From: Microbotryum violaceum
Taxonomy: Eukaryota
Assembly (NCBI GenBank): GCA_001244265.2
Contig: CDLV01000012.1
Location: 1,240,001 to 1,304,000, forward strand
Direction: 5' to 3'
DNA: 64,000 bases
The first letter of the stretch is position 1. Every line of letters starts with the position of its first letter. The notes under the pieces were generated by a model. It ran no database searches. It worked only from the letters and a program-made list of their open reading frames with translations, and was not told the origin of the DNA. Below are positions 3,643 to 9,430 of this stretch, piece by piece. The position numbers and the translations under genes are program-made.

Positions 3643-5795
3643 ATGGGCGTCCACCCACGCGGATCCAACACCTCCTCGCGTGACGGATCCCCCTTGCACG
3701 CCTCCAGCTCGGCCAACACGCCCTCGGGCCAACCCAAAGCCAAGAAAGCGCGTCGATCCAAAGTCGCCGAAGCATGCAAGTTCTGTCGTCGTTCGCACAT
3801 GTCGTGTGATGCCGCTCGGCCTTGTTCGCGTTGCGTCAAGAGGGATATCGCCCATCTGTGCATTGATGAAGGATTACAACTACAAGCTCAGGCTCAGGCT
3901 CAGGCACAGGCACAAGCACAACAATCGAGTCAAGCGGGTAGTAGCTTATTACCACTACCACAGCATAACCACCCCCACTTCCACGACGATTCGAGTGCCC
4001 TTCGAGCGACGAGCGGTTCCCCCGCACCGGCACCAACGCCCTCCCTCGCCACCTTGGAGCCTCTGCCTTCCTTACCCAACCCGAGTCCATCACCGCAGTT
4101 CACAAGAACGATCCCACCCAATTCCTATCCGACTAGTTCGATGGCGCCAACTTCGTCGCTCGTCAATTTCGGTCCGCAATTGACCCTGTCGGGCTTTCCG
4201 CCCTTGCTCAATAACAATTTCAACCTCGCTATGGTCAGGCGTACTTGAGAATTGTTCCTGAGAGCTATAGAAGCTAACCGAACTTGAGATGTCTGTTCAG
4301 CTCGACCTGGCAAGCGATCGAGAAGGGATAGGCGCCGGGTTAGGTCTCGACATGTCGGCGGAGAATGGAGATTTCCAAGGACTTGGTCTGAGGTGAGCAA
4401 GAAGAATCAAATGAAGATGCTTCATATCCGTATACTAACCCTCAATAACGACGCACAGTGAATTCCTGCAATCGCTGAACGACTCCCCCTTCGCCCTCTC
4501 CGAACCGCTCGACCCGACTCCCAACTCGGCGCAGCAGCAACAACAGCAGCAATCGCAACAGATGTCTCAACCGATACCCCAACTCGATCTGGATGGTCTT
4601 CCAACGAACACCAAGACGGGTTTAGAAGGCGAACCGAATGCAGCGGGAACGGAACAACCATCCAACAACCGAAGTGCAGGTCCGAGCGTACCCGGTAGTC
4701 CTATCAACAAGTGGGTCATATCTGCACAGAAAGGCAACGGTTCAGATCGCTGATCATACACTTCCGAGGCGTGGTGACGCACAGAACCGAACGCTTCCTC
4801 CTTACCGCGGCTGATCAAAAAGACGGCTCAAGGTCGGATCGGTTGGCGCGAGTTATTCACGCCAAGTTCGAGGCGGGCTTGTTGAGACCTTATAACCATG
4901 TTGCGGGGTATACGAGGTTGATGAGGTGGATGGCGGATAAGTGAGATTGTATCTGATGTGTTCATAAAGAGTGGGGTACGTCGTGCTCATCCGCTATTGT
5001 TCTCTCGATCAGCATGTCGCAGAGCTCGCGACAGAGGACGTTGCAAACCCTTTCAGAATTCCGACCGGCGTTCAGGGTAACATATTCACTCCCTACGAAG
5101 CCCTTTTGCTTGTTCAATAGTAATGACCTTTTCATTTTTGCCTCACAGGCCATCGCCTCGGGCCTAACGGACCTTGACCTCGTTTTCATCGAAGAGGCCT
5201 TCGAGCGCCTTCTCCTCGACTACGACCGCGTGTTCTCCTCCATGGGCATCCCCTCTTGTCTCTGGCGACGAACGGGAGAAATATATAAAGGCAATAAGGA
5301 ATTCGCCGCTTTGGTCGGGGTCCCGATTGAGCATCTACAAGGGGGCAAGCTGGCAATTTATGAATTGATGGCCGAGGAGAGCGCGGTCAATTATTGGGAG
5401 AAGTATGGGAATGTGAGTTGGGCGTTCGGGGCTGGCCAAATAAGAGTGGGTGGAGTTGGGTTTACTCTTACTGTGATTTCTTCTTTATGGATCGCTACAG
5501 ATCGCTTTCGACGCTGGTCAAAAAGCCGTCTTGACTAGTTGCGTCTTGGTCAACCAATCGATTCTCAAAAGGAAGAAGAAGAAAGCCGGCGTCGATAAAG
5601 CCAAGTTGAGAAAGGACGCCATGATCTCGGTGAGTAACACCGCTTACTGCCTCAAAAAATCAAATGGGAGGTATCTTGTCTTGGGATGCTGATGCTTCAC
5701 TGTCGGGATGCCCACAGTGTTGTTTCTCGTTTACGATCCGCAGGGATAGTTATGCGATCCCTTCGGCTATTGTGGGTAATTTCCTTTTGCAGTGA
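3643..5795 (+). CDS. RDS2: Zn(II)2Cys6 transcription factor with C-terminal PAS-like domain (RDS2/AcuM-like gluconeogenesis regulator)
   Basis: ACKFCRRSHMSCDAARPCSRCVKRDIAHLC cluster; TERFLLTAADQKDGSRSDRLARVIHAKFEAGLLRPYNHVAGY; IEEAFERLLLDYDRVFSSMGIPSCLWRRTGEIYKGNKEF; ends CCFSFTIRRDSYAIPSAIVGNFLLQ*. Multi-exon. Confidence 0.88.
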
Positions 5796-6017
5796 ATGAC
5801 GAGGAGCCTAGTGGGTGGGTGGGTTCTGGGTCTATGTGTTGTAAACTATCGTCAATTACGTTTTAGCTCCATGATTTACAAGTTTCCCGGTCTCTCTTCC
5901 CGAGCGTGTACTGCTATAGTCTTCAGTCAAAATCAAAGTTCTTCATTTCATTCACGCACATAAATCTATCACCACCAACCAAAGGCTTGTTAAGCCCATT
6001 TGCACTCGTTCTGCCCT

Positions 6018-7507
6018 CTACTCCTTCGCCAAGGCGTTCTTGAACCTCGGCTTCAACGCATCGACCCTATCCAAAGCGGCTTGCAAGTCCATAACGCCTT
6101 GTTTCCTCGCCGCCCTCGCTCGATCATACCCACTTTGTACCTCGATCGAATCGAGCTTCAACAAGGCTTGAAGTAATGCTTCGGAGAGGAAGATCAAAGT
6201 CCTTGGGTTCGGTTTCTCCATCCCGATTTCCGTTTCCCCTTTGGTCTCCGTTTCCATCTGCGGCTTTCCGGTTTCACCTTGTACGTTCGCGATCCATCGT
6301 TCCACCTTTTCCAAATCCGGTATCAAACTCTTCAACTTATTCTGCGCGACTTGATCAACTTTTTCAATCACTTCTTCTTCCGTCAAGATCGATTTTAAAG
6401 GTACGATCTCTTCAGCCCCCGTGGGGAGTAAATCGGCGCGATTCATGAGACGATCATCGATTTGTGAAGAAACTTCTTTGGAACCTAGAAGGACCAGTTT
6501 CTTCAATTTACGTTGGGAGGAGGAGGGACCGAGGAGGGACCAAGTGTCCCAGAAGGATCTTGTAGAGCTGGGAGTGGTCGAGTGGGAGGAGGAGATGGGT
6601 TGAGGGTTATCGATTAGGCCGAAGGAGGAGAGAGGCGCGAGGTCGTCTTTGAGGATCGCGCCGGAGTAGATCAATTTTTGGTGGTCGGGGGCTACGCCGG
6701 TGATGTTGAAACTATGGTCCCGTCCAAGGAGGTGGGGTTAGTCCGAGTGCTGCTGGGGATTGAGAGGGTCATCAGAACGTACAGGGCTGCTTTGAGCGTC
6801 GAAAGGGGTGAGTTAGGGGGTGGGAGTGGAACTCGAATCCTGTAAACGACAACCGTCCAGAAACTTTATCAACTCCAAAGCCCCTAAACGCTCATCCCAA
6901 AGCTCTAGGAACTCACTTCTCCTTCCCCCACTGCACCTCAACTTCCCCCCACCCTTTACCGCTCCCACTCCCACTGGGCATCCCTTCAGCACTCGGCGTC
7001 CCCAATCCAAGGTCAAACATCTTGTCCGTAATGGCGTAAACTCGCGCTTGGAGGCGGGCAGAGATGTGGCGCTCGATACGACGTTGTTCAGAGAGACGGG
7101 ACGAACGACGCGAGTAGAGGGAGGTGAGCACGATCAGGAACGCGGGGAACCAGTAGGGGGAGTAGGTGGAGATGAGTTGGAGAGTTTGGGTTGTTGTGGG
7201 ATGGTCTGATTAAGGGAGAAGGAGACGGAGAAGGTGGGAGTGCGAGAGAGCACGTGGGGAGGACGAAGCACAGGGAGACCATTAGCCCTTCGCGCACACC
7301 CACATACCACAGAGACCACCTTCTAAACCTACCCAACAGCTGAATAGCCTTGTTCGCGAGTACGTTATCCGAAGCACGCAAGAGCGAATTGAACTGGGCG
7401 AGTTGCGACGAGAGAACGTCGAGCACGTCCGAGCGAGCGGAAGAGGTCGACGAGCTGAGGTGATGCGCTTGGGTGCGCCACCACAAGGGGTCCAATAGAT
7501 GGGCCAG
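6018..7507 (-). CDS. Ubiquitin-like + BAG domain Hsp70 co-chaperone; first AUG at 7020, candidate upstream CUG start at 7507
   Basis: Ubl: VEVQWGKEK|IRVPLP..LSTLKAAL|FNITGVAPDHQKLIYSGAILKDD. BAG: FLSEALLQALLKLDSIEVQSGYDRARAARKQGVMDLQAALDRVD. Introns at 7332-7206, 6916-6840 and ~6783-6713. The start is inferred. Confidence 0.85.
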
Positions 7508-7827
7508 CTTGAACGAAAACAACGAGCGAGAGCCACCGGATCCGCAAGGGTAGTGAGCTTCGGGCGGTGCTTTACTGGTGCGCAGGTGGAACGAGCCGCG
7601 AGCGAGCGAGCGAGCTGGAGCGAGCCACCGCCGCCTCGTAGGCCAAATCCTGGATGATAATGAGAATTCGAATTCCAGCTATAGTCTACAATAAGAGACG
7701 ACCCTTGTCGGGCTTCAAGGCCTTAGTAAAATTAGATTCTATGGGAAAAATAAAATAAATGCGGGCGCTGGCCCAGAGTAACTAGGCTATCGCCTCTGAC
7801 CTGACTACGACGTCCAACTGTTTCCTC

Positions 7828-9430
7828 TTACCCCCCTGGACGAGAGGATGCCGCTGATGACATCATACCTATCCTGTTGGAGCCACCTTGGGCCTTTCAG
7901 TCTCCGGAAGGACGAGTTGAATTTGAGAGGGGTGAGATTCCAGTCGATCATGCACAGCGAGCCGTCATCGCACAGTAGCACCTTACGAAGCTCCCGGTCC
8001 GAGTGGTCGATCCCGTACTCGTCGAAAAGACGACAAAGTGGTGTTCAGCCTCGCTTGGACAGCGAGCTGCATGGTGGTTATACGACATGGGCGGATGGTT
8101 CCGGAAGGCCCTTATTCTCTGATTCACTTGGCTGACCTGTCCTCTGTCTCTTGTTTTCTAGCCCACTTGGCTGTTCCCCGTCACCTTCCTCTGAGCGTTC
8201 AAGCTTGGTCTGCCCCTCGACACCCGAGCCTCCGCTAGAATCGTCCCGATGCTTCCCCGTACCAAACAGAGAGTTGAGAATATCGTCGGGCGGAGGTGGG
8301 ACCTTGACGAGATAGTCTAGGATAATCGCGAGGAACAAAAGCGGAATGGATTTTGGCCGGAAATCGAATGCATATCGATCCCGATCCTTGACGTCATTGC
8401 TGGTTTTGAAGATGGGGGTGTAGACGAGCCCAGCTTCTTGATCGTTGTTCGGGTTAATGACTGTCAGGAAACCAGAATACGACTTAGGGATGAGCAAGCT
8501 CAACTCGTCATGTCCACTCCAACTTACCCGACTCGGCCAGAATGGCAAAATGAGTGCTCTCAATGATGCCGAAGCGCACCGGTACCTCGACTTCACCCGT
8601 CTTTGGGTCACGCTGAATTGCAGACTGCATCCTCCAGACGAGCTGGAGACCCAAAGAAAGATACAGTTAGCAATCTAGTGACCATTGAGCGAAGCACTAG
8701 GGAATACAAGATGCTCACCTTGTTCAGCATCGCCTGCGCGCCATGGCTCCTGCCACATGGATCGAGCGGGATCGGCTCACCCTCGTTGAGGAAGAACTTG
8801 CACTCGGAAGAACTTGCACTCGTCCTCGCGGGCAAACCCGTTCGGCTGACATCCAAAGGTCAGGAAGCTCGAGTCTTCCTCAAACGATATGGTCGTGTTG
8901 GACGCCACTTTCGTTATCGTGTGCCTCAGAGCAAAGGTGATCCCGCGAGGGAGTTGGGCTTGAAGGGGGTCTTCGGGACGATAGTGGAGGAGGTAAAGAC
9001 CGCCCGCCTTCTTGCCGCCCTCTTCGATCTTGTCATGATATTTTTTTCAGCACGATCGTGACGAGGGGCTCGAGTACTCGGATACGCAGGTCGTGCATAC
9101 TGACTGTGCACTCGGGTGAGTTCGTACAGAAGAGTCGTGCTTTCCCCAGGGGCATCAGCAGCTGGCGCGTCTCGTTGTACACGGGTTCCACCAAGTCATG
9201 TGCGCCCATAAAGTCAAGTAGCGCGCGTTCCAGTCGTTGTTGAAGTGAGGTATCCAGTATTGCTGAGACTGGGAGCTGTGACGAGGGAGGAAGGGGGTCT
9301 CCTTGGAAGGGCGTGCCGATCGCACGGTCGCTGAACTCGTCCACCTTGCCGCAGGGGTGAAGGTCAGAGTTTGGCACATCAGGTAGTAACGTGTCCGGGG
9401 ACTGGAAGATGTCCTGATTCGGTTTCATGA
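7828..9430 (-). pseudogene. Decayed fungal protein-kinase-like gene (nuclease-like N-terminal region plus kinase C-lobe)
   Basis: Terminal segment GIDHSDRELRKVLLCDDGSLCMIDWN (catalytic loop with N->K, IDW at the DFG position). Upstream fragments GAQAMLNK|LVWRMQ..RFGIIESTHFAILAE|..GLVYTPIF..PLLFLAIILD. Several stops and frameshifts, and no recognisable kinase N-lobe. Confidence 0.6.

Follow-up and report, generated by a model that had tools for sequence, protein, structure and literature searches.

Human BAG-1 is made as nested isoforms (BAG-1L, BAG-1M and BAG-1S) from one mRNA by leaky scanning; the longest, BAG-1L, starts at a CUG, and the isoforms differ in localisation (PMC6821271; this and the other papers cited here are drawn on in excerpt). 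In Schizosaccharomyces pombe, Bag102 carries a single N-terminal transmembrane segment followed by a ubiquitin-like (UBL) domain and a BAG domain, and resides at the nuclear envelope and endoplasmic reticulum (ER) with its domains facing cytosol and nucleus, while Bag101 is a soluble, cytosolic protein with UBL and BAG domains (PMC3907333). Saccharomyces cerevisiae Snl1 is described in the opening of an abstract as an ER-anchored BAG-domain protein (PMC3962485). These accounts bear out the background given in a preliminary description of a BAG gene on the minus strand of a 64,000-nucleotide (nt) stretch of Microbotryum violaceum DNA (GenBank assembly GCA_001244265.2, contig CDLV01000012.1, positions 1,240,001 to 1,304,000). 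We refer to this whole stretch as the window and use its own numbering; features lie on its minus strand unless stated otherwise. The description proposed that one gene makes membrane-anchored and soluble isoforms by leaky scanning from a CUG. Cross-species comparison and RNA-like contigs support that interpretation, and we consider initiation at CUG 7507 with production of two isoforms probable.

We infer that a fraction of scanning ribosomes starts at CUG 7507, in its A−3/G+4 context, and would produce a 404-residue protein. Within its 120-residue extension, 72 residues would precede a hydrophobic anchor (residues 73–89), and a basic cluster would follow it. The long form would be tethered to a membrane in the manner of S. 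pombe Bag102, exposing its UBL and BAG domains to the cytosol or nucleoplasm. Where the weak CUG is passed over, scanning ribosomes would meet no AUG in any frame until 7020, where a soluble, Bag101-like protein of 284 residues would begin. A single gene would give both forms, in a ratio set by the stringency of start-codon selection.

The two predicted isoforms reproduce the Bag102/Bag101 pair. S. pombe uses two genes for this, whereas a single Microbotryum gene would provide the two by way of a near-cognate start; the Bag102 anchor falls within the first 31 residues, whereas 72 residues precede the Microbotryum anchor. Like human BAG-1, the fungal gene encodes a UBL followed by a BAG domain and has a longest form predicted to start at a CUG. 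The BAG-1L extension has no membrane anchor, and the human mRNA has four in-frame starts, an internal ribosome entry site and a G-quadruplex. The likeness to BAG-1L is probably convergent, as the fungal extension shares no sequence similarity with that of the human protein. We know of no alternative start described for Snl1. That protein also differs from the Microbotryum protein in having no UBL domain, as stated in the excerpted S. pombe study (PMC3907333).

Near-cognate codons serve dual targeting in basidiomycetes, for example in Ustilago maydis PGD (PMC7214817), and weak AUGs and near-cognate codons have been exchanged repeatedly in fungal evolution, including in Cryptococcus (PMC7049704). 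In U. maydis PGD, Cryptococcus LeuRS and ArgRS, and yeast AlaRS and GlyRS alike, initiation at an upstream near-cognate codon lengthens the protein by a targeting extension, and the AUG-initiated form is cytosolic (PMC7214817, PMC7049704). Those extensions are peroxisomal or mitochondrial signals, unlike the membrane anchor proposed here as the payload in Microbotryum. The excerpted Cryptococcus survey reports no enrichment for signal peptides followed by an alternative start (PMC7049704). Neurospora crassa cpc-1 was found by the same comparative logic, with an extension as conserved as its main open reading frame (ORF) and near-cognates in good context; it differs in encoding a transcription factor controlled by upstream ORFs (uORFs), with no targeting role in the account excerpted (PMC5487733). 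The separate ingredients, namely the CUG start of BAG-1L, the anchor of Bag102 and fungal near-cognate dual targeting, are already known. What would be unusual at this locus is the membrane-anchor payload, the retention of the design across a fungal class with exchange of CUG, GUG and AUG, and the repeated annotation errors.

Gene structure and the AUG-free leader

The identification of a BAG co-chaperone in the preliminary description agrees with the domain searches. A public model, P0034, is 100% identical to the gene and corresponds to MVLG_05661 of Microbotryum lychnidis-dioicae p1A1 Lamole; its C-terminal 404 residues are the spliced translation from CTG 7507. The BAG domain (Pfam PF02179) scores 42.7 bits in the last exon and 41.6 bits in P0034, against a cut-off of 23.4, and the ubiquitin family (PF00240) scores 30.4 bits in P0034 against a cut-off of 25.4. 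The last exon alone reaches only 21.8 bits for PF00240 because the UBL domain is split over three exons. The UBL domain (6948–6609) is N-terminal to the BAG domain (about 6218–6030). By domain content, the gene is a UBL and BAG Hsp70 co-chaperone of the BAG-1/Bag101/Bag102 type, and homology predicts Hsp70 binding through the BAG domain and proteasome binding through the UBL domain. In a literature search that lay outside subscription journals and preprint supplements we found no mention of MVLG_05661; Microbotryum was unmentioned among the matches listed, and papers on Rhodotorula and non-AUG initiation held nothing on this gene, judged by their titles and abstract openings.

The transcript structure was read from X10, a sequencing run without a recorded type that we label RNA-like because its contigs skip four GT..AG introns. 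One spliced X10 contig of 3451 nt (depth 107, no mismatches) aligns to the locus in four blocks, 7596–7333, 7205–6917, 6839–6783 and 6711–5717, with joints that remove 127, 77 and 71 nt. The first joint, 7205/7333, coincides exactly with the intron placed at 7332–7206 in the preliminary description, the borders of which are GT..AG on the minus strand. The BAG mRNA spans at least 7596 to 6018 and contains three introns. The contig thus begins upstream of CTG 7507, with an ATG-free 5′ leader of 89 nt (7508–7596) and no loose end. Since 7596 adjoins a (CTCG)n microsatellite (7597–7620) whose length differs between strains, this end may be an assembly break rather than the true transcription start. 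X10 cover is absent over 7597–7648, a gap that was not used as evidence. The low-depth run X1 is 4 nt short at the microsatellite and carries an insertion of 2 nt behind 7552; the M. silenes-dioicae public model shifts frame at the same microsatellite.

The coding part of exon 1 (7333–7507; 58 codons and 1 nt) encodes the pre-membrane segment LAHLLDP...SDNVLANKAIQLL and is delimited by the contig, codon usage and an orthologue motif. Intron 1 (7206–7332, 127 nt, GTAGGT...CAG) is in phase 1 and is followed by exon 2 (6917–7205), in which the extension ends, the internal start lies and the UBL domain begins. Beyond intron 2 (6840–6916, 77 nt) lies a 57-nt exon 3 (6783–6839, IRVPLPPPNSPLSTLKAAL) within the UBL domain, recognised because X10 skips both 6840–6916 and 6712–6782, the latter being intron 3 (71 nt). 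Exon 4 (6018–6711), supported by the contig and Pfam, encodes the remaining UBL domain, a linker and the BAG domain, and closes with the stop codon TAG at 6020–6018. Exon 3 is absent from the preliminary description and equally from P0035 and P0039, the public models of M. silenes-dioicae and M. saponariae, which read GKEN-FNITGV.

Around the proposed start, minus-strand ATGs occur at 7866, 7863, 7305, 7282, 7020 and 6981. The earlier claim of an AUG-free region from 7860 to 7021 holds, as the only ATGs in it, 7305 and 7282, are both within intron 1. At the 13.4 ATG per kb of the window's minus strand, about 11 would be expected in 843 nt and two are seen; the ATG-free gap from 7863 to 7305 (558 nt) is the fourth longest on that strand. 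After splicing, leader and extension (449 nt, 7596 to 7021) contain no ATG in any frame, against 10 in the main coding sequence (855 nt), and the 360-nt extension alone contains none in any frame. The distance from CTG 7507 to ATG 7020, put earlier at about 120 codons, is exactly 120 codons in the spliced sequence. The spliced frame is open from an in-frame TAG at 7681–7679 through to the stop at 6020–6018, and because of this TAG a more distal ATG cannot feed the frame without splicing. An upstream mini-exon with ATG 7866/7863 and a GTAAGA donor was considered and rejected: these ATGs lie in the unspliced contig of the upstream gene and are out of frame, with TAG 7681 in between.

The proposed near-cognate start of the long isoform, CTG at 7505–7507 (context ttcaagCTGgcc), is placed by the conservation boundary described below and by the recurrence of the codon and its context in another locus, L004. 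It has the A at −3 and the G at +4 that had been noted for it, and follows AAG 7510. The first AUG of the mRNA (7018–7020, gacaagATGttt) also has A at −3 and is the proposed start of the soluble 284-residue isoform. The window and the DNA run X6 (depth 230) agree at every position of 5700–8312, so no ATG is hidden at 7507 and no assembly error accounts for the CTG.

Conservation of the extension and its proposed anchor

All four Microbotryum public models are fused to the ORF upstream, which makes a protein comparison possible on both sides of the CTG. We compared the window with the models of three species, giving identities as matches over aligned columns. With M. intermedium, the 60 residues upstream of the CTG leucine match at 12/45 with 30 gap columns, the extension at 94/120 with no gap columns, and the protein from the internal Met at 226/280. 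The corresponding values are 22/57, 111/120 and 236/265 for M. saponariae, and 36/60, 118/120 and 261/265 for M. silenes-dioicae. Protein conservation begins at the CTG, as the contrast in identity and gaps across the leucine in M. intermedium shows, and on this comparison the extension is as constrained as the protein body, the constraint setting in at the CTG leucine. Across the four Microbotryum species the extension has neither frameshifts nor stops. Exon 1 has a coding-like codon usage in frame (0.225, against −0.16 and −0.17 off frame and an off-frame 95th percentile of 0.116), measured with a small training set of 11 long ORFs and 4850 codons.

A hydrophobic stretch followed by basic residues had been described in the extension, and both are present. 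The proposed membrane anchor, YSPYWFPAFLIVLTSLY, comprises 17 residues (73–89; 7114–7164) and is followed by the basic cluster SRRSSRLSEQRRIERH (7066–7113), with one Lys or Arg in the 15 residues before the stretch and four in the 15 after it. Membrane insertion is our proposal, and a basic cluster placed behind the putative anchor would orient the C-terminal UBL and BAG domains towards the cytosol. The usual Kyte–Doolittle cut-off for a membrane segment is about 1.6. The best 19-residue segment averages 1.23 in the window and 1.15–1.53 across Microbotryum; of ten orthologues outside the genus, nine score 1.65–2.02 and one, JL221 P0007, scores 1.26. The layout itself recurs in 14 of 14 extensions, each with a hydrophobic 19-mer followed by three to six Lys or Arg and preceded by one or two.

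The first protein search returned 31 matches among 1329 candidates, and 19 of them were examined. Ten of these start at the conserved methionine (M-x-D-[YLF]-G-L-G), four have an upstream extension carrying the hydrophobic stretch and basic cluster (P0007, P0011, P0014 and P0020), and five are fragments or have odd N-termini. P0011 and P0020 derive from spliced contigs with an unspecified gene caller, and their initial methionine needs caution. Those of P0007 and P0036 may be ORF calls that run into an intron, because they stand shortly before the 'DH(P/R)' with which exon 2 begins, at the site of intron 1 in the window. A scan of metagenome contigs gave 12 loci (L001–L012), seven of them with enough upstream DNA; L003 breaks off after 201 nt, the region is missing from L002 and L006, and L011 and L012 are distant. 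The stretch before the internal ATG is ATG-free in 7/7 loci, over 521 nt in L001, 816 in L004, 615 in L005, 537 in L007, 527 in L008, 541 in L009 and 570 in L010, so the AUG-free leader extends to the orthologues. In the window, L004, L008 and L010, the frame contains no in-frame AUG from the first AUG back to the nearest in-frame stop. The internal Met corresponding to 7020 is kept in every orthologue examined, with a purine at −3 of its ATG in the five lineages read (window, L004, L008, L010 and L001).

The codon at the boundary was read directly in these loci. The Rhodotorula graminis-like locus L004, whose last exon is 43% identical, reads cccACG CTG GCG CAC CTA CTC GAG (T-LAHLLE) where the window reads ttcAAG CTG GCC CAT CTA TTG GAC (K-LAHLLD), so that CTG, A−3/G+4 context and peptide all match. 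CTG with A−3/G+4 is found in the window, L003, L004 and L005, and the R. toruloides model P0014 starts MHLLE. L008 has agcACA CTG TTC at the aligned position, a CTG with A at −3, and L010, which aligns less well, has a CTG with G−3/G+4 about 40 codons before the SDN motif. In the Sporobolomyces clade a single boundary column holds M in P0011, V in L001, L007 and L009 (GTG, in a weak context with C at −3) and in the S. salmoneus and S. phaffii models, and L in S. koalae. Near-cognate codons thus recur at the boundary outside Microbotryum, as CTG in L003, L004, L005 and L008 and as GTG in L001, L007 and L009.

The intron position is a further point of agreement. A phase-1 intron directly before 'HP' is common to the window, L001, L007 and L009, and L008 offers a GT..AG intron of 66 nt there; the Rhodotorula-like loci read G|ATACGT at this position (L004:3425–3440), with no GT donor. 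Candidate frame-preserving GT..AG introns number 22 in L004 and 18 in L010. L004 and L005 differ by 13 substitutions, 12 upstream of the CTG, one just after it and none in introns, which cannot separate coding from non-coding sequence. The exon 1 peptide of L004 had no protein match among 749 candidates. In the distant locus L012 (GC 46%), positions 378–620 encode a hydrophobic stretch and basic cluster directly before the Met that opens the UBL domain, in an exon that lacks an in-frame ATG and has a single ATG out of frame, at 505. The design may not be confined to Microbotryomycetes.

We see about an even chance that, across Microbotryomycetes (Microbotryum, Rhodotorula, Sporobolomyces and others), one UBL and BAG gene encodes both a Bag102-like anchored and a Bag101-like soluble form, the start of the long form being always weak and drifting between CUG, GUG and AUG. 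Through start stringency, for example under stress, a cell might then tune how far Hsp70 and proteasome delivery goes to the membrane or to the cytosol, and BAG-1L would have converged on the arrangement independently. If so, one fungal gene does the work of S. pombe bag101 and bag102 through a conserved non-AUG start, and a membrane anchor joins the targeting signals delivered by near-cognate codons, so far mainly mitochondrial, peroxisomal and nuclear. The locus would also offer a natural series of CUG, GUG and AUG at one start, usable to study start strength against isoform ratio in basidiomycetes.

Two proposed isoforms from one mRNA and the alternatives

Several observations weigh against two isoforms from CUG 7507 and AUG 7020, or qualify the evidence for them. 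The boundary is resolved only to about six codons, because the 'xLxxFxK' before the leucine is partly common to M. intermedium, and TTG 7522 and AAG 7510 are in frame; in the other three Microbotryum species it is read from proteins as a leucine residue, not as a codon. Codon usage in exon 2 before the Met is marginal (0.015), and the hydrophobic stretch of Microbotryum lies below the classical Kyte–Doolittle cut-off. Contigs cannot fix the transcription start, so that a minor start downstream of 7507 remains compatible with them. When codon order was shuffled to assess out-of-frame ATG depletion, 4713 of 20000 window shuffles were also ATG-free, which is not significant, and neither were the results for L001 (8235 of 20000), L009 (8391), L004 (12953) and L008 (20000); missing out-of-frame ATGs are uninformative alone once Met codons are absent. 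Methionine is found at none of 1437 extension residues in 14 orthologues, against 39 in 3743 residues downstream, a count that overstates independence because the sequences are related and that is not a probability. Downstream of the CUG, no hairpin of a kind that might boost initiation exceeded chance expectation (z −0.19 for the window and −0.48 for L004). In the L001 group, an in-frame ATG persists 132 nt before the GTG (L001:1064, L009:604 and L007:1212); the peptide after it is scrambled between L001 and L009 by 1-nt and 2-nt indels, and this ATG may open a uORF or be situated outside the transcript, before its start. Finally, tblastn of the window extension against the upstream DNA of eight loci gave a best E of 0.005 (exon 1 against L001 and L007) and nothing significant elsewhere. 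With pairwise extension similarity this weak, deep homology rests on architecture, motif and intron position.

An arrangement in which the extension is CUG-translated and the isoforms come from two transcription starts, the short mRNA arising within exon 1 or 2, is in our judgement unlikely, though both routes could co-operate. Contigs cannot reveal transcript starts, and some dual-localised Cryptococcus genes add alternative transcription starts to start-codon choice (PMC7049704). Two transcription starts would give no need to keep 360 nt free of Met, yet the 1437 extension residues include none and the 7/7 loci are ATG-free over at least 521 nt; the X10 contig, moreover, is continuous from 7596. 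Absence of Met and ATG between the two starts is instead a prediction of selection for access to AUG 7020. This also bears on the rather improbable case in which the long anchored protein alone is functional, Met-121 being an ordinary conserved residue and the AUG product a by-product. The M-x-D-[YLF]-G-L-G motif is kept as a peptide and could have a structural role, and S. pombe Bag102 is a dedicated anchored protein (PMC3907333), but near-cognate codons are generally inefficient in the excerpted literature and the next AUG has a purine at −3 in 5/5 lineages, so most ribosomes should start there. We likewise give a low probability to a start of the long form at a near-cognate codon close by, namely TTG 7522, AAG 7510, TTG 7495, TTG 7486 or CTG 7585. 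All five candidates are in frame, 'L' at −5 and 'K' at −1 are common to M. intermedium, ACG directly precedes the CTG in L004, and U. maydis PGD initiates at near-cognates in tandem (PMC7214817). Against them, A−3 plus G+4 occur only at CTG 7507, which is also the codon conserved with L004; the 2-nt insertion behind 7552 and the 4-nt deletion at 7598 in X1 would break the frame for starts upstream of 7552, a weak point at a depth below 5.

We regard it as very unlikely that the region upstream of 7020 is a long, intron-containing 5′ untranslated region (UTR) in front of a gene making the AUG protein only, with the frame a relic or conserved at the RNA level. Such regions are generally AUG-depleted and the exon 2 codon-usage score is marginal, but the extension is conserved like the body, gapless across 120 codons at 72–81% identity, with conservation ending at the CTG. 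The order of anchor, basic cluster, Met and UBL domain persists where sequence has diverged, the intron phase is kept, and exon 1 codon usage is coding-like in frame. A genuine fusion protein read from the ATG of the upstream gene, as predicted by MVLG_05661 and related models (four from Microbotryum and four from Sporobolomyces), appears to us extremely improbable. In X10 the upstream gene is colinear through its stop down to 7649, in an unspliced contig at depth 44.6 against 107 for the BAG contig; the X10 contigs contain no joint from one gene to the other, and the bridging introns that the models predict do not appear in them. The fusion partners are unrelated among species, similarity stops at the CTG, and the in-frame TAG 7681–7679 intervenes. 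Initiation at CUG 7507 followed by leaky scanning to AUG 7020 accommodates the conservation boundary, the AUG-free leader and the recurrent near-cognates, and on this comparative basis remains the reading we favour.

Public gene models and the neighbouring genes

The BAG locus is fused to its upstream neighbour in 4/4 Microbotryum and 4/6 Sporobolomyces models (P0034, P0035, P0039, P0040 and P0041–P0044). The MVLG_05661 model, 640 residues long, starts at the ATG of the upstream gene. The partners include a gene without a Pfam hit, DUF2237 in M. intermedium and UPF0203 in S. salmoneus, the last verified for P0041 only. We read these fusions as a gene-finder artefact, arising where an exon looks coding but offers no ATG; in the window itself, the RNA-like contigs show the two genes as separate transcripts. 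With an ATG required by gene finders, most of the annotations examined either lack the predicted anchored form or mis-fuse it: public models are cut at the internal Met in ten of the 19 proteins examined and fused to unrelated neighbours in others. Annotation pipelines that demand an ATG thus repeatedly misdescribe the BAG locus.

At its 3′ end, the X10 BAG contig runs 1846 letters beyond 5717 through a joint (window about 5600–5717), where it probably enters a convergent downstream gene on the plus strand, so that the two 3′ ends overlap. On the other side, the upstream-gene contig extends about 430 nt (7649–8078, minus strand) past its stop codon TAA at 8080–8078, which suggests a long 3′ UTR for that gene. 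This 3′ stretch contains a short ATG-ATG ORF (7866–7828), and about 50 nt separate the end of the contig from the point where the BAG contig starts.

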